Assembly (NCBI GenBank): GCA_963783575.1 | Contig: CAWAOD010000003.1 | Span: 192,001 to 256,000 of the forward strand | Direction of reading: 5' to 3' | Source: an uncultured Spirochaetota bacterium | GTDB taxonomy: Bacteria; Spirochaetota; Brevinematia; Brevinematales; JAOACQ01 | DNA length: 64,000 nt | Part shown: one piece after another, positions 30,052-42,093 of the stretch | Position numbering within the stretch: position 1 is the stretch's first letter | Layout: every line of letters starts with the position of its first letter | Notes under the pieces: generated by a model | What the model saw: only the letters and a program-made list of their open reading frames with translations | Databases searched by the model: none | Told to the model about the DNA's origin: nothing | Program-made: the position numbers and the translations under genes

Positions 30052-31836
30052 TCATTGAAGATCATTTTTTGTGACTTCGAATATAAGTGTCTTATCGGCA
30101 ATCTGCCTGAGGCTTCTATTACTGCTGCCGCGGGGAATTATCCAGCAGACAGCCCGTTTGCCTTCATAATAATTCATTGCTGAAGAAAGAACTTTTCGCA
30201 AAGAGTAAGGCTTATTTGAAACAATATTAATCACTATCATCAACCAGTTCTCCGAATAATGGCTTATGTTTGAACCCTGCTTTAAAAGTTGCGTTACTGA
30301 AGGACCGGCTGTCTTTTTCTTGGCATGCCCGAAATCCGGAGCTTCGGTATTGCCCATAGGATCTAACCCGGACGCGCGGCAAAAATCAATAGAAGCCCAC
30401 TTAGCGACTGATTCCGATGAAGAAATTTTTGAATAATTGCAGTCGTACAAATCGATTATCAGTTCAAAAGCTTCGGAAAATCCTTCCTCTACAGGCAGTT
30501 TATAACCGGATGACAAAATTCTGGAACAGTCAGTAAGTTTCGGTTTGAATATTACATCAATGTCTTTTAATTTCTTCCCCAATAATTCCTCCTGGTAGAT
30601 ATAACAGCATTTCCTGATCTGCCGGAGGTCACTAAATGAACCGCGCGGTATATGCCAGCAGACAGCCGAATCCGCCCCAAAATAGCTTAAAGAATAAGCT
30701 GACGCATCTTCCACAGGCAAAGAGGCGCAGGTAAAGCAATTGGCGCTGCCGGTCGACCCATACTGCCGGTAATTGATAGCACTGGTTTCTATATATTGAA
30801 CCAGCGTTTCGCCCGGTCCGAAATTTGAATTCGATACAATAGGTTTACCGAAGGCTTTCATTTTTATAGCTTCGCAAGTCTCTTTACTCCATCTCGCCAC
30901 CTTATCCATTGCCGGAAATTTAGCATCCTTAAGATGAAGATCCATTATTATTTCTTCGCCGTATTTATCCTGTTCAAGCCTTCTCTGGAATTCCGGATAT
31001 ACCATGGTTGAAATATTCGGGGAATACCATCTTGTTTTAATTCCTGATTCCTTAAAGGCTTTTTTAGCATTCTGAGGTGCTCTTTTGAAAACTTTTCTGC
31101 CCTTTGATCCGGCTGTAAGGCTGAATGGCCCTCCGATATAGCTTGCGTTTGCGAATTGAACCACCCTTACATCATCAAAAGAACACTCTATCTGCCGCCA
31201 GCTTGCCGGACACTCAGAAGGCTGAAGTATCAGCGAACCTGTCTGATGTATTGCAATTCCCCCGTCTATAAGCGCGTTATAAACGCTCTGGTAAAAGTCC
31301 GTGCTGAACAGTGATTTTGCCGGACCTATAGGATCGGTTGAATCAATAATAACAACGTCGCAGGTTTCTTTCATTTTTCTTATCGCTTCGGCGCCGTCCC
31401 CGGTAATTACATGAAGCCTTTTATCATCCCAGATTCCTTCCGATACCGAAGGCATTAATTTCCTGCAGTAATCTATGACCATTTTATCAATTTCTACAAT
31501 CGTCACTGAATTTACCGATTTATGCTTCAAAACTTCCCTTGCAACTCCACCGTCACCACCGCCGATTATCAGGACTTTTTCGGCCGGTTTGAGCAGAGAA
31601 AAAAGCGGCCAGTGAGTAATCCATTCATGATAAATTCCTTCGTCTTCTTCTGTTAACTGGACGACTCCGTCAAGAATCAGGACACGCCCAAGCCTCTCCG
31701 TTTCAAGGATCATGATTTTCTGAAATCCCGTATCCGTTTCTGGTAAAAGAATTTTCGAAACTTTAAAGCCGTAAGTAATATCCGGATAGAGTTCTTCATA
31801 GAACCAAAATTCATTTTTTTGGTTGGTTAATCCCAT
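30052..31836 (-). CDS. speE: Spermidine synthase fused to two tandem AdoMet-decarboxylase-like domains
   Basis: LDGVVQ, YHE, LIIGGGDGG, VEID and DSTDPIGP in the first ~290 aa; duplicated C-terminal module ending AVCW(H/I)IPRG. Confidence 0.85.
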   Translation of the reverse strand: MGLTNQKNEFWFYEELYPDITYGFKVSKILLPETDTGFQKIMILETERLGRVLILDGVVQLTEEDEGIYHEWITHWPLFSLLKPAEKVLIIGGGDGGVAREVLKHKSVNSVTIVEIDKMVIDYCRKLMPSVSEGIWDDKRLHVITGDGAEAIRKMKETCDVVIIDSTDPIGPAKSLFSTDFYQSVYNALIDGGIAIHQTGSLILQPSECPASWRQIECSFDDVRVVQFANASYIGGPFSLTAGSKGRKVFKRAPQNAKKAFKESGIKTRWYSPNISTMVYPEFQRRLEQDKYGEEIIMDLHLKDAKFPAMDKVARWSKETCEAIKMKAFGKPIVSNSNFGPGETLVQYIETSAINYRQYGSTGSANCFTCASLPVEDASAYSLSYFGADSAVCWHIPRGSFSDLRQIRKCCYIYQEELLGKKLKDIDVIFKPKLTDCSRILSSGYKLPVEEGFSEAFELIIDLYDCNYSKISSSESVAKWASIDFCRASGLDPMGNTEAPDFGHAKKKTAGPSVTQLLKQGSNISHYSENWLMIVINIVSNKPYSLRKVLSSAMNYYEGKRAVCWIIPRGSSNRSLRQIADKTLIFEVTKNDLQ

Positions 31837-35174: not shown

Positions 35175-36728
35175 GTGAAAATTTTATATTTAAATTATTT
35201 ATTAATCGCATTGTCTTTTCTGGGTTATGTTTCCTGTTCGGCAGGGGACCCTGATAAAATAACTCAGAGCCAAAGCAGGAACAATCCCAACGACCCGGGC
35301 GGCGGGAATTATTCGAGCGCCGCAGGTTCATCGACTGGTAATTCATCATCGATTAACGGCAGTTTGAGTGCGTCCAGTGCAGATATTTTGCCTAATGCGC
35401 CTGTAGTAAGCGGAACAAGCCCAACACTTAATAAAATGCCGACCTGGAACTGGGTTTCGGGCGGAGGTGGAAGCGGAACATACCGGTATAAACTGGACAG
35501 TTCCGATCTTACAGCAGGCGCAGTAGAAGCTGCAGCCGTAAGCTTTACTCCGGCATCAGCGCTTTCTCTGGATAATCATACCCTGTATGTTCAGGAACGT
35601 AATTCGTCCGGGAACTGGTCTGTAAGCGGCAATTATACCATCCTTATTTCGGATTGCATACCCGTTGGCTGGATCGGCGGTGGAAGTGACGGGTGGAAGA
35701 CCAATTCCGATCCTATAAGCGGTGGCGATTACCGGTCATTCAGGTATCCCGGTGATGTTTTTGTAGACAGCGCCGGAAATATCTATATATCTGATTCTAT
35801 AACCAATAGAATTTCAAAATGGGACTCAAGCGGAACAGCTTTAGGATGTATCGGCGGGGGAAGCGATGGATGGAAAACCGGAAATTCACCGATTTCTGCC
35901 GGAACAGATTTACGGAGTTTCAAGAATCCCGAGGGAGTTTTTGTCGACAATTCAGGAAATATATATGTCGCGGATTATAACAATCACAGGATCAGCAAAT
36001 GGGATTCTTCCGGAACAGCCTTAGGATGGATCGGCGGTGGATACGACGGATGGCAGACGGGAAGCGCTCCTGGCGCTGCGGGAAACTTTAAATATTTCAG
36101 CGGACCGTCATCAGTCTGTGTAGACGGATCTGGAAATATTTATGTTGTCGATTGCGGTTATGTAAGCAAGTGGAGTTCAAACGGCGTTGAAGTGGGCTGG
36201 ATAGGCGGGGGAAGCGACGGATGGCAGACAGGCATGCATCCGGGCACGAACACTGATTACAGGAGTTTCAGTTATGCCCATGGCATCTGCATTGACGGCT
36301 CGGGTAATCTGTATGTCACCGAGGATTATAACAACAGGATCAGCAAATGGGATTCTTCCGGAACTGCTTTGGGCTGGATTGGCGGTGGTAGCGACGGGTG
36401 GAAGCAGACAGACGGCGCAGTATCGAATGTTGATTACAGGAGCTTCAGGCTCCCGCGGGATGTTTCGGTGGATGCGGGGGGAAATATCTATGTCGCGGAC
36501 TGGTATAACAACAGGATCAGCAAATGGAATTCTTCCGGTACGGCCTTGGGCTGGATCGGCTATGGAAGCCCGGGGTGGAAAAAAAACGATATTCCTTCAA
36601 CATATTCCGGGACCATTAGGGATTATGATTTTTTTAATTACCCGATTGGCATATTTGTCTGGAATTCTACCAATATCTATATTGCCGAACAGAATAATTA
36701 CAGAATATCCAAATGGCAGCAGCCGTAG
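35175..36728 (+). CDS. AGDPD-tag lipoprotein 1: Ig-like domain + NHL-repeat beta-propeller
   Basis: GTG start after AGGAGG; VSCSAGDPDK tag; about 6 repeats of VDxxGNIYVAD.xN.RISKW..GWIGGG. Confidence 0.85.
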   Translation: MKILYLNYLLIALSFLGYVSCSAGDPDKITQSQSRNNPNDPGGGNYSSAAGSSTGNSSSINGSLSASSADILPNAPVVSGTSPTLNKMPTWNWVSGGGGSGTYRYKLDSSDLTAGAVEAAAVSFTPASALSLDNHTLYVQERNSSGNWSVSGNYTILISDCIPVGWIGGGSDGWKTNSDPISGGDYRSFRYPGDVFVDSAGNIYISDSITNRISKWDSSGTALGCIGGGSDGWKTGNSPISAGTDLRSFKNPEGVFVDNSGNIYVADYNNHRISKWDSSGTALGWIGGGYDGWQTGSAPGAAGNFKYFSGPSSVCVDGSGNIYVVDCGYVSKWSSNGVEVGWIGGGSDGWQTGMHPGTNTDYRSFSYAHGICIDGSGNLYVTEDYNNRISKWDSSGTALGWIGGGSDGWKQTDGAVSNVDYRSFRLPRDVSVDAGGNIYVADWYNNRISKWNSSGTALGWIGYGSPGWKKNDIPSTYSGTIRDYDFFNYPIGIFVWNSTNIYIAEQNNYRISKWQQP

Positions 36729-36745
36729 AAAAGAGGAGGAAGTTT

Positions 36746-38140
36746 GTGATAAGAATAAACTTTTATCTTTTATTAATCCTTGGTTTTACTTTCGTTTTGA
36801 TTTCCTGCGCCGCAGGCGACCCTGATAAAATATCACAAAGCAACAGCAGGAACAACCTCAACGACCCGAATGGAGGCAATTATTCCTCCGTTAGTTCCGT
36901 AACAAGTTTTTCATCTTCTTCCACGGGAGGTACAGTAAGTCCAACAGTCATTTCCGCAAGTCCGCAAAATAATGATCAGGGAGTCTGGATTTCACAAACA
37001 ATAAATATAACATTCTCTAAAACAATGAATAAAAATCTTACAACGAATGCGTTTTCTCTAAAAGACCCGGGGAATTTCAACATTGCCGGGACCTTTCAAT
37101 GGGTAAACAATGATCAGAATCTGGGGTTTACTCCATCCGGAACTCTTTCATATGATAAGGAATATACTATGACCATAGGAACAGGAGCGGAAGATATATC
37201 GGGTAATCCTTTGCCGGCAGCGTTTACAAGCAAATTTACAACCGGATGGGCTCAGGCGACGACAAACGGAGGATGGCCCGGAAGAACATTATCTACGTGC
37301 GTTTCATTTAAAAACAGCCTGTGGCTTTTGGGCGGCTTTTCCACTACAATTTCCAATAACGATGTCTGGTGCAGTTCCGATGGGGCAGACTGGAATCAGG
37401 CTATTGAAGTCGCGCCCTGGATTGGAAGACATTGGCATACAAGCGTTGTATTTGATAATAAGATATGGGTTATGGGCGGCTGTTGTATCAATGGAGATTG
37501 GACAAATGATGTCTGCTACAGTCCCGATGGAACAAACTGGTATCAGGCCACAGCCGCTGCCGGATGGAGCGGGAGAGAAGGACATACCAGCGTTGTATAT
37601 GACGGCGGTATGTGGGTCATTGGAGGCTTAGATACAACAGGCCATTATAAGTCAGATGTCTGGAATAGTGCCGATGGAACAAACTGGTTTCAAATTTCAC
37701 CATCTGCCGGATGGAGCGTGCGATACGACCATGCCAGCGTTGTTTTCAATAATGCGATATGGGTTATGGGCGGTTGTGACGGTAATTATATGAACGATGT
37801 CTGGTACAGTACCGACGGTGTTAACTGGAGCCAGGTTACGGCTTCAGCCCCCTGGTCAAAAAGATCGGGATTTTCAGCCGTAGTCGCCGGTCAGAAGATA
37901 TGGATTATGGGTGGTAACAACTCAACAACCGGTTATCAGACAGATGTTTGGTATAGTTCCGATGGAACAAACTGGATGCAAGCTATGGCTTCGACAGGAT
38001 GGGGAGGCAGGGAATGGCAAGTATGTACTGTGGATAAAATGTTCGTCAGTATTATTCAGTCGATTGACAGAATCTGGCTTATCGGCGGTTACCAAGACGG
38101 GCAGGGAAAGAAAAGCGATGCATGGTGGATACTACCGTAA
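36746..38140 (+). CDS. AGDPD-tag lipoprotein 2: bacterial Ig-like domain + Kelch-like repeats
   Basis: GTG at 36746 after GAGGAGG; ISCAAGDPDK tag; ITFSK.M..DISGNPL Ig-like domain; repeats of WVMGG..NDVW.S.DG.NW. Confidence 0.85.
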   Translation: MIRINFYLLLILGFTFVLISCAAGDPDKISQSNSRNNLNDPNGGNYSSVSSVTSFSSSSTGGTVSPTVISASPQNNDQGVWISQTINITFSKTMNKNLTTNAFSLKDPGNFNIAGTFQWVNNDQNLGFTPSGTLSYDKEYTMTIGTGAEDISGNPLPAAFTSKFTTGWAQATTNGGWPGRTLSTCVSFKNSLWLLGGFSTTISNNDVWCSSDGADWNQAIEVAPWIGRHWHTSVVFDNKIWVMGGCCINGDWTNDVCYSPDGTNWYQATAAAGWSGREGHTSVVYDGGMWVIGGLDTTGHYKSDVWNSADGTNWFQISPSAGWSVRYDHASVVFNNAIWVMGGCDGNYMNDVWYSTDGVNWSQVTASAPWSKRSGFSAVVAGQKIWIMGGNNSTTGYQTDVWYSSDGTNWMQAMASTGWGGREWQVCTVDKMFVSIIQSIDRIWLIGGYQDGQGKKSDAWWILP

Positions 38141-38168
38141 AATTTAATTTTAATTATCGGAGGCTCAT

Positions 38169-39251
38169 ATGAATTTAAAGTCATTAAAATATCCATTGAT
38201 TACGGCGATTTTGTTTATATTAACATCCTGCTCTGCGGGCGATCCCGATAAAATATCGCAAAGCAACAGCAGGAACAACCCTAACGACCAGAACGGAACT
38301 GCTTATTCCAGTATAAGCAGTTCTGCAGGTGTATCTTCATCTGCAGGTACATCTTCATCTGCAGGTGTATCTTCATCTACAGGCTCATCTTCAACTGCTA
38401 GTGCTTATACAGTGGGGGCAAACTGGACTCAGGCAACCGCTGCGGCGGGTTTCTCACCCCGCGGGGGGCATGCAAGCGTTGTTTTCAACAATGCCATGTG
38501 GGTAATCGGCGGATTTGATTCTTCAAACATATATAATGATGTGTGGTATTCCAAAAACGGCACAAACTGGACTCAGGCAACTCAAAACGCGGGGTTCAGT
38601 ATACGGGATTCATTCAGTTGTCTGGTTTTTAAAGGCAGCATGTGGGTGATCGGCGGAAGATCCTACACTTATACAAACGATATCTGGTATTCAAGGGATG
38701 GGACAAACTGGAGCCTGGCGACGGCCGCTGCCGCATTCTGCCCGCGTGGCAGTTTTGCCGGCGTGGTCTATAACAATATGATGTGGGTAATTGCCGGAGG
38801 ATATTCTCTAAGTGGAGAAACCAATGATGTCTGGTATTCAAGCGACGGGACAAACTGGTCAAGAGCGACGGCAGGGGCTTCGTTCTCCACGCGTAAGGAA
38901 GCCGTGTGTCTGACTAATAACAATTTGATGTGGCTGATCGGAGGGAGTATAAATGGCGAGGCATGGTATTCAAGCGACGGCATCAACTGGGCCTGTTCAA
39001 CCGCAAATGCTCCATATTCATACAGATTCGAACATTCAAGTGTGGTTTACGACAACAAAATGTGGGTAATATGCGGCATCAACGTTTCCGGAATATACTA
39101 TTCAGGCAACGGCACGAACTGGACCCTGGCGGGTAACCCGGAAATAACCAATAAATACGGACATACGACATTGGTTTATAACAATGCCATGTGGACGATT
39201 GCCGGTTATAACGAAAACGGAAGCACTAATGATGTATGGTATGCGCAGTAA
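38169..39251 (+). CDS. AGDPD-tag lipoprotein 3: Kelch-like repeat propeller
   Basis: TSCSAGDPDK tag; repeats of MWVIGG..NDVWYS.DGTNW. Confidence 0.85.
   Translation: MNLKSLKYPLITAILFILTSCSAGDPDKISQSNSRNNPNDQNGTAYSSISSSAGVSSSAGTSSSAGVSSSTGSSSTASAYTVGANWTQATAAAGFSPRGGHASVVFNNAMWVIGGFDSSNIYNDVWYSKNGTNWTQATQNAGFSIRDSFSCLVFKGSMWVIGGRSYTYTNDIWYSRDGTNWSLATAAAAFCPRGSFAGVVYNNMMWVIAGGYSLSGETNDVWYSSDGTNWSRATAGASFSTRKEAVCLTNNNLMWLIGGSINGEAWYSSDGINWACSTANAPYSYRFEHSSVVYDNKMWVICGINVSGIYYSGNGTNWTLAGNPEITNKYGHTTLVYNNAMWTIAGYNENGSTNDVWYAQ
38322..38393 (+). repeat. 4 x 18-bp tandem repeat encoding a Ser-rich linker
   Basis: TCTGCAGGTGTATCTTCA-like units (SAGVSS). Confidence 0.8.
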
Positions 39252-39297
39252 AGATATCAATAAAATATATGTTTCAATTGAAAATCAGGAGGAACAT

Positions 39298-40257
39298 ATG
39301 ACGATAAAGATACATATAATTTTACTATTACTAGGTTTTCTGCTATTTACGCTTTCCTGCGCCGCGGGCGATCCCGACAAAATATCTCAGAGCAACAGCA
39401 GGAACAATCATAACGATCCTAACGGAACCGCTTATTCCAGTGCTGTCAGTACATCGAGCGCTTCCAGTTCATCGGCGGGCAATTCATCTTCCAGCGCAAG
39501 CTCAAGTTCTTTTAACCCGCAGAATTTGCATGTCATAAAGACAGTAGATACAGGCGACGAAGCCTCCGGGGTTTGTGTCAGCGGGAATTATGCTTATATG
39601 GCCGATACCGGCGGGCTTAGGATTATTGATATAACCAGCCTGGCCGGCGCCTCACTTACAAATACTGTAGCTATAAGCGGCTATGCTCAGGGAGTCGCTG
39701 TCAGCGGGAATTATGCCTATGTGACCACATACAGCAGCGGGGTTCAGATCATAGACATATCAAGCCCGGCAAGCGCTTCTATTATTAAAACTGTTAATAC
39801 AGGCTATTCTTATGGAGTCGCTGTAAACGGGAATTATGCTTACGTGGCCGGTAATAACGGGCTTCTGATTATAGACATATCAAGCCCGGCAAGCGCTTCT
39901 ATTATTAAAACTGTTAATACAGGCGGTTCGATGGATGTCGCTGTCAGCGGAAATTACGCTTATGTGGCTGATGAAAGCGAGTTTCGTGTTATAGATATAT
40001 CAAACCCGACCAATGCTTCTATTTTAAAGACAATAAGTACAATGAGTATTGGTGGTGGAATTTATGTCAGCGGAAATTATGCGTATATGGCTGCCGGAGA
40101 TGCAGGCCTGTATGTTATGGATATATCAAGCCCTGCCAATGCTTCTATTTTAAAAGTAGTTGATACAAGTATAAGCGGCGGCTCTATTAAAGTCACTGTA
40201 AGCGGGAATTATGTTTTTGTGACTGGTTTTAGCGGGTTTGAGGTAATCGGGCAATGA
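39298..40257 (+). CDS. AGDPD-tag lipoprotein 4: LVIVD-repeat protein
   Basis: ATG at 39298 after AGGAGG; LSCAAGDPDK tag; repeats of VSGNYAYVA...GL.IIDIS.P; identical 54-bp DNA repeat at 39751 and 39871. Confidence 0.85.
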   Translation: MTIKIHIILLLLGFLLFTLSCAAGDPDKISQSNSRNNHNDPNGTAYSSAVSTSSASSSSAGNSSSSASSSSFNPQNLHVIKTVDTGDEASGVCVSGNYAYMADTGGLRIIDITSLAGASLTNTVAISGYAQGVAVSGNYAYVTTYSSGVQIIDISSPASASIIKTVNTGYSYGVAVNGNYAYVAGNNGLLIIDISSPASASIIKTVNTGGSMDVAVSGNYAYVADESEFRVIDISNPTNASILKTISTMSIGGGIYVSGNYAYMAAGDAGLYVMDISSPANASILKVVDTSISGGSIKVTVSGNYVFVTGFSGFEVIGQ

Positions 40258-40312
40258 ATTATATTTGCATAACGAGATTATTTAAATAAAAAAATAAACG
40301 GAGGTATTTTAT

Positions 40313-40900
40313 ATGTTAAGGAAATTGGTTTTTGCTCTGCTTTTTGTAATGTCTGCGGGTCTATTTTACGCCGAACAGGATTTGCCTGCCGCTTCTTTTC
40401 CGGGACTGAATACACAAATTCTCGCATTCAACCCGGCCTTTTCCGTTGATTTACAGAGTTGTTTTGGTCAAGATAAAGGTATTTATGAAGCTACTACAAA
40501 AAAATCCACAACACCAATTCAAAAGAAGCCAACACCGGCTAATAATGGCGGAGGACCTTCGATTCTGAATATATGCGGATATGTTTTAATAGCCGCCGGA
40601 GTCGGCGGTCTTGGAGCGGGATATTATTTCGATACTCAAGCGGCAGCCAATTTGAAGGATGCACAGAAGAATTACGATGATTATAAAAATGCGACAAGCG
40701 GATTTGATGATAAGTGGAGCGCTTATCAGGATAAACTGAACCAGGCCAGACTGAATATTCAGTACCGGAACTATAGTTATATAGGCGGAGGAGTTGCCCT
40801 CGGTGCAGGCCTTATACTAGCCTTTATACCATCCGGCCCTAAAAAGAAATATAGTATTTATGTAACACCGGATTCTATATATGCTGTTTACAGGTTTTAG
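40313..40900 (+). CDS. Exported hypothetical protein with Gly-rich hydrophobic hairpin and C-terminal beta-signal
   Basis: Signal peptide; two Gly-rich hydrophobic segments flanking a charged helix; ends SIYVTPDSIYAVYRF. Confidence 0.7.
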   Translation: MLRKLVFALLFVMSAGLFYAEQDLPAASFPGLNTQILAFNPAFSVDLQSCFGQDKGIYEATTKKSTTPIQKKPTPANNGGGPSILNICGYVLIAAGVGGLGAGYYFDTQAAANLKDAQKNYDDYKNATSGFDDKWSAYQDKLNQARLNIQYRNYSYIGGGVALGAGLILAFIPSGPKKKYSIYVTPDSIYAVYRF

Positions 40901-41094
40901 TGATAAGGGGAATACAGGCTGTTTCATCCGAATAATCCGGCGTTGGGGCTTAATATTCGACCGGATTTGGAATGAAAAATTTTCTTATTAAAAAATGAAG
41001 CAGCTTTTATCCGGAGTTCCGCCATGTTTTATTTTAATATGACGGAACTTCACGTTTTTATTGTTAAAATATTGATATTTAATGGAGGCTGTTC

Positions 41095-42093
41095 ATGATA
41101 AGAATAGTAACCGGTTTTTGTATGGCGATTGGAATATCATTTATGTTGTTTTCCTGTGCCGCGGGCGATCCTGATATAATATCGCAGAATAACAGCAGGA
41201 ATAACCCGAACGACCCGAAAGCCGGAAATTCTTCCAGCGGCGGCTCGCAGGCCGGGGGTTCAAGCAGTACCGGCGGTGGGACAAGCAGCTCCGTGACTAC
41301 CACCAATACATCTTCTCAAGGAACGTCTCTGGCAGCCGGTCCTGTCTTAACAGTACCTTCCACCGCTTCAGGCAACTTCAATATATCCTGGACATTCACC
41401 TGGCCTTCATTGACCGGCGGACAGGATCATTATGAATTGGAAAAATCATTACAATCACAAGCCGGGTATTCAATTGCCGAATCGACTCCGAACGATACAA
41501 GGACATCTCCATATATCACCGTCTATAGTCCGGTTGCCAGCGACTATGGCAATACTCTTTATTTCAGGGTAAGAGCTCGTACAAGCTATGGGTATACTGC
41601 ATACAGCCAGGAAAAATCCGTTGCCCTAACGCAGCAGCAGCAAAAGTATTATATTAAATTGGTAAATAATATGTCCGGCGGCGGAAGTGATGAAATTGTC
41701 CAGGTAAGAATTAGCAGCGTGGGAAGTGAAATATTTAAAGATGCTAATGAGCTTTTATCTCCTGATGATTATACATCGCCCATCTTGCCTGGTGATTCTA
41801 TAAATCCCGGGGGTTACCAGACATGGGATGTAACCGCCATAAAATCCAGATATTATGTGTTTATTGGGCTTGGAATGTGGGATTATGATGCGGTATTAAA
41901 TAATGAATGGTTCAAAGAACTTCAGAATGATCAAAATTATTATATTTATTGTTCCTTTTATATAGACAGCCAGACAAGTACTACGGTGACAGTTACCGTA
42001 GGATGTGATGCAAATAATAATATAAAGGCCTTCTTTGATTTTGGAGGTTCGGCGGGCTTTGTTGCATCAACAACTGATCCAACGCCAAATTAA
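41095..42093 (+). CDS. AGDPD-tag lipoprotein 5: FN3-like + unknown beta domain
   Basis: FSCAAGDPDII tag; Ser/Gly/Thr linker; ISW...YEL...YFRVRA..GY..YS FN3 pattern. Confidence 0.82.
   Translation: MIRIVTGFCMAIGISFMLFSCAAGDPDIISQNNSRNNPNDPKAGNSSSGGSQAGGSSSTGGGTSSSVTTTNTSSQGTSLAAGPVLTVPSTASGNFNISWTFTWPSLTGGQDHYELEKSLQSQAGYSIAESTPNDTRTSPYITVYSPVASDYGNTLYFRVRARTSYGYTAYSQEKSVALTQQQQKYYIKLVNNMSGGGSDEIVQVRISSVGSEIFKDANELLSPDDYTSPILPGDSINPGGYQTWDVTAIKSRYYVFIGLGMWDYDAVLNNEWFKELQNDQNYYIYCSFYIDSQTSTTVTVTVGCDANNNIKAFFDFGGSAGFVASTTDPTPN

Follow-up and report, generated by a model that had tools for sequence, protein, structure and literature searches.

Bacterial lipoproteins are exported and lipidated at a Cys residue by an established pathway, and in the curli system (CsgG-CsgF) and in HfaB-type anchors an N-terminal peptide of the client protein docks in an outer-membrane oligomer. 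One report describes the choice and placement of surface lipoproteins in diderm bacteria as still partly open (PMC13721041). The lipoprotein export signal (LES) is a di-acidic patch at +3/+4 that acts lipoproteome-wide, with export through Lpt (PMC6222051, PMC13692018), with the consensus forms CS(D/E)2, K(D/E)2 and QA(D/E)2 (PMC6222051). Here we describe a cassette in an uncultured Spirochaetota bacterium, found in a stretch of 64,000 nucleotides (the window; positions 192,001 to 256,000 of the forward strand of contig CAWAOD010000003.1, assembly GCA_963783575.1), to which all coordinates below refer unless a contig is named. Five lipoprotein genes of the cassette share a motif just past the lipidated Cys (the tag), and a sixth, untagged gene (the partner) lies among them. 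The tag is a real N-terminal motif, kept by selection and portable between proteins, and a partner gene recurs beside it in several phyla. The sources searched do not describe it, and it suggests a hitherto undescribed mode of protein docking at the cell envelope.

In the first gene the tag runs from the lipobox Cys to a motif-ending Tyr (35235..35312), with its core, R-x-N-x-x-D-P, starting at 35277; the other four tags lie at 36806..36883, 38229..38306, 39358..39435 and 41155..41232, all on the forward strand, and the core of the third ends in D-Q, not D-P. Across the five genes the 21 tag codons have 84% amino-acid identity, with a nonsynonymous difference (pN) of 0.07 and a synonymous difference (pS) of 0.68, estimated from 10 non-independent pairs over a short region; synonymous variation is present at 10 of the 14 invariant residues. 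The signal peptides of the same genes, in contrast, have diverged (24% identity, pN 0.55, pS 0.62). The low pN against the high pS, together with the synonymous variation, shows that the tag is kept by selection on the protein, and the 21-residue post-Cys tag is thus under purifying selection, in agreement with a first-pass annotation of the window that had read conservation at the protein level from differing synonymous positions. A profile of the five tags, run against 76,573 six-frame open reading frames (ORFs) of the same genome, matched these five only (E <= 1.2e-13; next best E 0.26). The annotation had seen the tag in no other lipoprotein of the window; a looser, sixth tag occurs elsewhere in the genome, beside a second partner gene. 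This second locus (contig C3:56344-64008) encodes a 374-aa Ig lipoprotein with the looser tag; 111 nt further on comes a 1663-aa Ig/beta-helix ORF, in which no signal peptide is evident, and then a 425-aa partner, which here lies downstream of the tag; the lipoprotein and the 1663-aa ORF are possibly one split gene.

The exact window tag was not found elsewhere: a phylum search of 400 genomes with signal peptide plus tag gave a best outside match at E 3.3e-5, a genome-contig search confirmed none, and a protein search found it in 0 of 231 candidates. Generality is limited to the second half of the tag, with the form R-x-N-P-x-D-P-x-[GA]-x-[N]-Y, and the 'AGDPD' part is local; of 46 compiled neighbours, the window's protein alone contained GDP. 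The block that had been annotated as one signal is shared whole by the window's five proteins, but its AGDPD half is not part of the general motif. Aligned on Asn, 39 compiled tags gave R(20)-x-N(39)-P(31)-[YLF]-D(39)-P(29)-x-[GA](25)-x-N(16)-Y(15), where the counts for N and D carry no evidence, both residues having been demanded by the tag selection. The motif lies 6-16 residues from the Cys in lipidated tags. Since a long-spacer profile (A5) missed known short-spacer tags, a second profile (A8) was built from 44 short-spacer tags, none from the window; it matched window gene 1 at E 4.8e-4 and aligned with the window tags at a probability of 96.3, the lipobox making up part of the alignment. 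The tag modelled alone was mostly coil (predicted local distance difference test, pLDDT, 66.6; predicted template modelling score, pTM, 0.23). Searches with 22 tag peptides, which as short peptides have low power, found no NCBIfam family, no Pfam family at E <= 1 and a single PDB match at chance level, in line with the earlier statement that the tag belongs to no named family.

As no search recovered the complete AGDPD form at another locus, the untagged gene at 40313-40900 was used as the query. Among 61 genomes it gave eight further matches, five of which adjoin a lipoprotein with a looser tag, one of these in the same genome. A partner profile found 24 matches in 17 of 301 Spirochaetota genomes, and at the 15 new partner loci of this phylum the next gene encoded a predicted lipoprotein in every case and carried the N-x-x-D core in 11. 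A wider profile, applied to five genomes picked because they held tags, yielded 13 new loci, 12 with a tagged neighbour. Both real partner loci of a metagenome scan were tagged (the other four of its six loci were rejected by eye as PilO-like false matches), as was neither of two partner-like genes in genomes of the Fibrobacterota-Chlorobiota-Bacteroidota (FCB) group. In total, 30 of 40 partner loci have a tagged neighbour. As a background, 275 further lipoprotein candidates of the window's own genome were scored in the same way, of which 4 pass, all at the minimum; a clear tag is present in 6 of 281, all six beside a partner; this candidate list is heuristic and contains false positives. Loci of canonical DUF5683 (PF18935) genes had no tagged neighbour in 10 cases read by eye in five genomes. 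Partners L041, L045 and L046, from the window's own taxonomic family, have neighbouring lipoproteins that keep only a C-x-x-hydrophobic-D-like start, without the N-x-x-D core. At L260 and L261, partner-like genes of PEGA-plus-hairpin type stand behind a PQQ/BamB-like propeller gene (by Pfam for L261), without a tagged neighbour, and at L273 and L275 pairs of canonical DUF5683 genes lie directly behind a large gene, which in L275 has an Omp85 match (E 3.8e-8) and in L273 no Pfam match in the part examined.

The linkage was also read in the opposite direction. The first tag search gave 14 matches outside the training set, one at a contig end, and a partner lay directly upstream in 8 of the 13 testable loci (six by hidden Markov model, HMM, one by the wider partner profile and Pfam, one by eye). 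A second search, with A8, gave 72 matches in 21 of 301 genomes; at 13 new loci inspected the partner was recognized by HMM in nine, by eye in one and not at all in three. In 61 Fibrobacterota genomes, a partner match ended at most 300 nt upstream of 20 of 45 tag matches, where 0.04 were expected, with profiles for both tag and partner that included some Fibrobacterota sequences. A further 88 partner matches in this phylum had no tag match; reading the best 20 of these 88 revealed a clear tag in eight, a second tag class in five, a lipoprotein without a clear tag in two and nothing readable in five. In 121 Bacteroidota genomes there were 26 tag matches in 20 genomes, and among 20 loci read, the partner was directly upstream in four, while four more tags were in the second gene of an array headed by a partner. 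Such arrays, with one partner and then one or two tagged genes, made up seven of eight arrays inspected. A DNA pattern scan of GTDB, in which 80 of at least 120 loci were read, added 15 post-Cys tags (from KSB1, Calditrichota, Fibrobacterota, Latescibacterota and others), three of them with an adjacent partner; the other 65 loci were discarded, being mostly internal matches, judged by eye, in an Acidobacteriota propeller protein or in cyclophilin-like proteins. Genome G254 has 19 tag and 5 partner matches, resembling the window's five-to-one. The linkage of tag and partner is strong but not obligatory. Of the checks proposed in the first-pass annotation, two gave a positive answer: tag profiles recovered the core beside a partner in other phyla, and co-occurrence with homologues of 40313..40900 was seen in three phylum samples (Spirochaetota, Fibrobacterota and Bacteroidota). 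Some tagged lipoproteins without a partner, of ~330-480 aa, have a similar start of the first domain (L072, L095, L326, L363, L367-L373, L375, L376); this type is apparently single-copy and, in L072 and L095, lies upstream of genes that, judged by eye, encode a sigma-54-type regulator and a Ser/Thr kinase. In Fibrobacterota, tagged lipoproteins L281, L295, L299 and L303 follow directly behind genes that end, by eye, in TPR-like repeats and not in the hairpin of the partner.

The tag is also found without lipidation. In genome G270, five clients have a signal peptide that ends in Ser (TCG/TCA, not one base from a Cys codon) and no lipidated Cys, and keep the tag. Their partners fall into a clade starred in our tree (100/99), and the genome's three lipoprotein-type partners lie outside it; the tree has 45 rows, one of which held a stop, leaves out L229 as too short and is weak in its deep branches. 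Genome G138 encodes a Cys-less tagged nuclease without an upstream partner. Cys-less tagged clients with a partner clade of their own speak for a motif that does more than tether by lipid, and for a match between partners and classes of client. A second post-Cys tag class, C-x-x-[LI]P-x-D/E, was read by eye behind five Fibrobacterota partners (L313, L314, L315, L317 and L320).

The partner gene of the window (40313..40900, forward strand) encodes 195 aa, with a predicted cleavable signal peptide (by eye), a low-complexity linker and a conserved C-terminal module. The module is predicted to form a helical hairpin (40562..40822) of a Gly-rich hydrophobic segment, ~45 amphipathic residues and a second Gly-rich hydrophobic segment, followed by a C-terminal beta-hairpin (40850..40897) with Phe as its last residue. 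In the AlphaFold2 model (pLDDT 92.5, pTM 0.75) these appear as two long antiparallel helices (H10-52, H57-96) and two strands (E106-110, E115-119); the hydropathy peaks of the Gly-rich segments (1.55 and 1.71) lie at the open end of the helical hairpin, and the conserved aromatics of the amphipathic stretch close to its turn. The final residue is aromatic in 43 of 46 partners, a feature typical of outer-membrane proteins. Since the window partner and at least seven others have only 146-195 aa, the C-terminal module is the constant part. The N-terminal additions vary (none, CsgG/LpoB/TolB_N-like, PEGA, fn3 or, in one partner, OmpA), and many partners have a domain that matches the Pfam CsgG profile over its N-terminal half (no further than position 103 of 210), which the window partner does not. 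A library search with the partner found 166 representatives at E <= 0.001, whereas its model had no Foldseek match at E <= 0.001 and a wider fold search returned generic helical hairpins only (best Z 11.3). Atlas placed the partner in unannotated clusters; an ETRAMP label on 21% of one cluster was not adopted.

Behind the tags the five window proteins differ. The first (35175..36728, 517 aa) has a signal peptide, the tag, a Ser linker, a short Ig/FN3-like stretch recognized by eye and an NHL beta-propeller (Pfam NHL, E 1.5e-35); Pfam assigns a Big_5 Ig domain and a Kelch propeller to the second (36746..38140, 464 aa), a Kelch propeller to the third (38169..39251, 360 aa) and an LVIVD propeller to the fourth (39298..40257, 319 aa). 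The fifth (41095..42093, 332 aa), directly 3' of the partner gene as is usual in other genomes, has a passenger without a Pfam match at E <= 0.05. All five genes are on the forward strand. The first-pass annotation was right about five co-oriented lipoprotein genes with a common post-Cys block, including their ORFs, starts and tag sequences, and about a Ser-rich linker followed by differing bodies; of its 'FN3+unknown' for the fifth, FN3 is an Atlas lead only (score 0.81-0.83), without a counterpart in Pfam. The passengers of clients at other loci are likewise unrelated (Kelch, NHL, RCC1, LRR_5, PKD, Ig, C11 peptidase, HmuY-like, laminin G, Lcl, FGE-sulfatase). A GGAGG-type ribosome-binding site precedes each of the five starts, and gaps of 17-194 nt separate the six cassette genes; promoter and terminator scans gave results at chance level. 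The GC content of the cassette, 44.7% against 37.4% for the genome, may reflect acquisition or Gly/Ser/Ala-rich proteins. Elsewhere in the window, a gene on the reverse strand (30052-31836) encodes a spermidine synthase fused to a C-terminal region matching S-adenosylmethionine decarboxylase (26.3 bits, cut-off 25). Contigs C7 and C17 of the assembly have GC contents of 52% and 49%, against 33-39% in its other contigs, possibly through assembly contamination.

We propose, with a probability of about one half, that the tag is a peptide that docks on the partner and holds swappable passengers at the outer membrane. Each client would be exported and lipidated at its Cys, and the linear motif, 6-16 residues further on, would bind the hairpin module at the partner's C-terminus. 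The partner would be a Sec-exported membrane protein, probably an outer-membrane oligomer, with its two Gly-rich hydrophobic segments and its terminal aromatic strand in the membrane and its amphipathic hairpin projecting toward the clients' side. The Ser linker would uncouple the tag from the passenger, such that propellers, Ig stalks and enzymes could be exchanged behind a constant address, and the cassette would constitute a docking-and-display module of one partner and five clients. The analysis shows the motif with its selection and portability, the gene linkage and the predicted fold of the partner; that tag and partner bind directly, that the partner oligomerises and lies in the outer membrane, and that clients are exposed at the surface or transported, we infer. 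A predicted complex of three partner modules and one tag scored 0.00, but control complexes likewise did not fold, and we count this neither for nor against binding. The dedicated sorting or docking signal suggested by the first-pass annotation is consistent with a conserved, portable and partner-linked motif; for polymerisation, which it had also suggested, no evidence was found in this analysis.

Several observations weigh against docking on the partner. Ten of the 40 partner loci have no tagged neighbour, and tagged genes without a partner are common: 5 of 13 in the first tag search, 12 of the 20 loci read in Bacteroidota, 12 of the 15 post-Cys tags of the GTDB scan and 25 of 45 tag matches in Fibrobacterota, although 3 of 14 inspected among the latter had a partner-like upstream gene by eye. 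The profiles were built iteratively from neighbours, several assignments rest on reading by eye, and related genomes do not count as independent cases. If gene pairs duplicated together, the same partner tree could result. Many Fibrobacterota partners end soon after helix 2, without the beta-hairpin, which argues against a universal barrel, and the two hydrophobic helices fit an inner-membrane protein equally.

The partner might do more than dock its clients: as a dedicated outer-membrane translocon or flippase, it would read the tag and move lipidated and non-lipidated clients to the surface, making a two-gene secretion system. The recurring order of partner then client, including the partner-headed arrays (seven of eight), the non-lipidated clients and the CsgG N-terminal-half domain of many partners (to position 103 of 210) suit such a role, and the domain types of the clients often occur on cell surfaces. 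We consider it possible but doubtful, as the partner module has only ~115 aa and can contribute no more than two strands per chain, the fold searches brought up no obvious transporter fold, and the CsgG-like domain is absent from the window partner; in addition, the surface lipoproteins of Borrelia and Bacteroides are reported to use Lpt-type machinery (10.1101/2022.12.21.521298; PMC13692018). That the tag is instead read by a general export or sorting machinery (Lol-, Lpt- or BAM-like), with the partner co-encoded for work with the passenger, would explain the many tagged genes without a partner, among them the conserved single-copy type in FCB-group genomes, and the 19 tags against five partners of G254; N-terminal export signals are known as well (PMC6222051, PMC13692018). 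Against it, just 6 of 281 candidates in the window's genome are clearly tagged, each beside a partner; moreover, the partner clade follows the tag class within G270, and the passengers are too diverse for one functional partner. We regard this explanation as rather unlikely.

We think it less probable still that partner and clients form inner-membrane or periplasm-facing complexes, such as sensing assemblies or envelope scaffolds, with no surface display. The two hydrophobic helices, the periplasmic-type N-terminal domains of partners (PEGA, CsgG/LpoB-like, OmpA) and the sigma-54/kinase, TPR or anti-sigma genes that by eye adjoin some partner-less tagged genes would fit such complexes, while the terminal aromatic residue kept in 43 of 46 partners and the only moderately hydrophobic, Gly-rich helices would not. 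Also against such complexes, a DUF5683 protein is listed in a vesicle proteome table of P. gingivalis, with its location given as 'unknown' (PMC13744359). The annotation's other suggestion, a processing site cleaved at Asp-Pro or, as we also considered, cut after Arg, is not supported. D-P is present in 29 of 39 tags, and in 20 of 39 an Arg stands two positions ahead of Asn; five of the clients are peptidases of the C11 type (by Pfam for L054, by similarity for the others), and self-processing modules and type V pilins offer precedents. This explanation is weak, however, because the Pro after Asp is replaced in 10 of the 39 tags, including the D-Q of window gene 3, and Arg in 19, and GDP is found only in the window; we judge it very improbable. 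Finally, the exact AGDPD form was found only at the window locus, as would be expected of a recent, functionless local duplication of the 5' gene end, but the tags diverged at synonymous sites (pS 0.68) with pN held at 0.07 while the signal peptides diverged, and the core recurs beside a partner in other phyla, leaving this origin barely credible.

A defined motif of ~12 residues and a candidate receptor of ~115 aa, linked across several phyla, make the question of how surface lipoproteins are chosen and placed testable with one peptide and one small protein. The linkage gives the DUF5683 superfamily its first functional lead in this analysis, and a tag-partner rule could annotate numerous hypothetical genes; should the pair function in a laboratory host, it would provide a compact display tag, possibly with orthogonal variants. 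Tentatively, and with more doubt than confidence, one may envisage an undescribed two-gene export system, in which the DUF5683-like hairpin is a small oligomeric outer-membrane translocon that reads N-terminal R-x-N-P-x-D-P and displays lipidated and non-lipidated cargo on the surface, with each partner subfamily paired to a tag class of its own in Spirochaetota, Fibrobacterota, Bacteroidota and Calditrichota. The main texts of mostly open-access literature held no description of the motif, of the function of DUF5683/PF18935 or of the architecture, and supplements could mention DUF5683 proteins.

Among described systems, the type XI secretion system (T11SS/Slam; DUF560, PF04575) shares with the cassette a dedicated envelope protein encoded beside lipidated or soluble cargo and variable passengers with a shared recognition part (10.1101/2024.09.26.615229; PMC13721041). 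Here, however, the shared part is an N-terminal linear motif, the window's clients carry NHL, Kelch or LVIVD propellers as their C-terminal parts, with that of gene 5 unassigned, and the role of partner falls to a small protein without a DUF560 match in Pfam, modelled as a helical hairpin with two strands and no beta-barrel. A PF04575 search of the genome found nothing, but the search controls were silent too. The Bacteroidota LES and the tether sorting of Borrelia likewise place portable information just past the lipidated Cys (PMC6222051, PMC13692018, 10.1101/2022.12.21.521298). Unlike the LES, the tag is an Asn-Pro-x-Asp motif at variable distance from the Cys, is present in few proteins, is linked to a partner gene and occurs also without Cys; the di-acidic LES pattern fits 1 of 34 compiled lipidated tags, and the window tags begin C-S/A-A-G. 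Five tag-adjacent partners pass the 26.7-bit gathering score of DUF5683 (33-45 bits), whereas the window partner does not match this Pfam model and has no GWGQ helix; by profile comparison (hhalign probability 89.7, E 1.8e-6, 67 columns, against a set that included four tag-adjacent partners, two of which the query profile itself had brought in) it appears to be a distant relative of DUF5683 and not a member by the cut-off. Many partners resemble CsgG in their CsgG-like alpha/beta domain, but the matches end at profile position 103 of 210, unlike full-length CsgG with its membrane strands, and the window partner has no such domain; for the 22 tag peptides, a Pfam search at E <= 1, which has low power with short peptides, gave no match to CsgF or any other family. 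In GDPH-type sites, an Asp-Pro bond is self-processed, whereas this bond is not invariant in the tags (Pro is absent in 10 of 39). The cassette works in a similar way to T11SS gene pairs and to LES or tether signals, yet lacks the features that define them. It is a variant of dedicated partner-cargo envelope systems and, if the partner transports its clients, could be a new export system.

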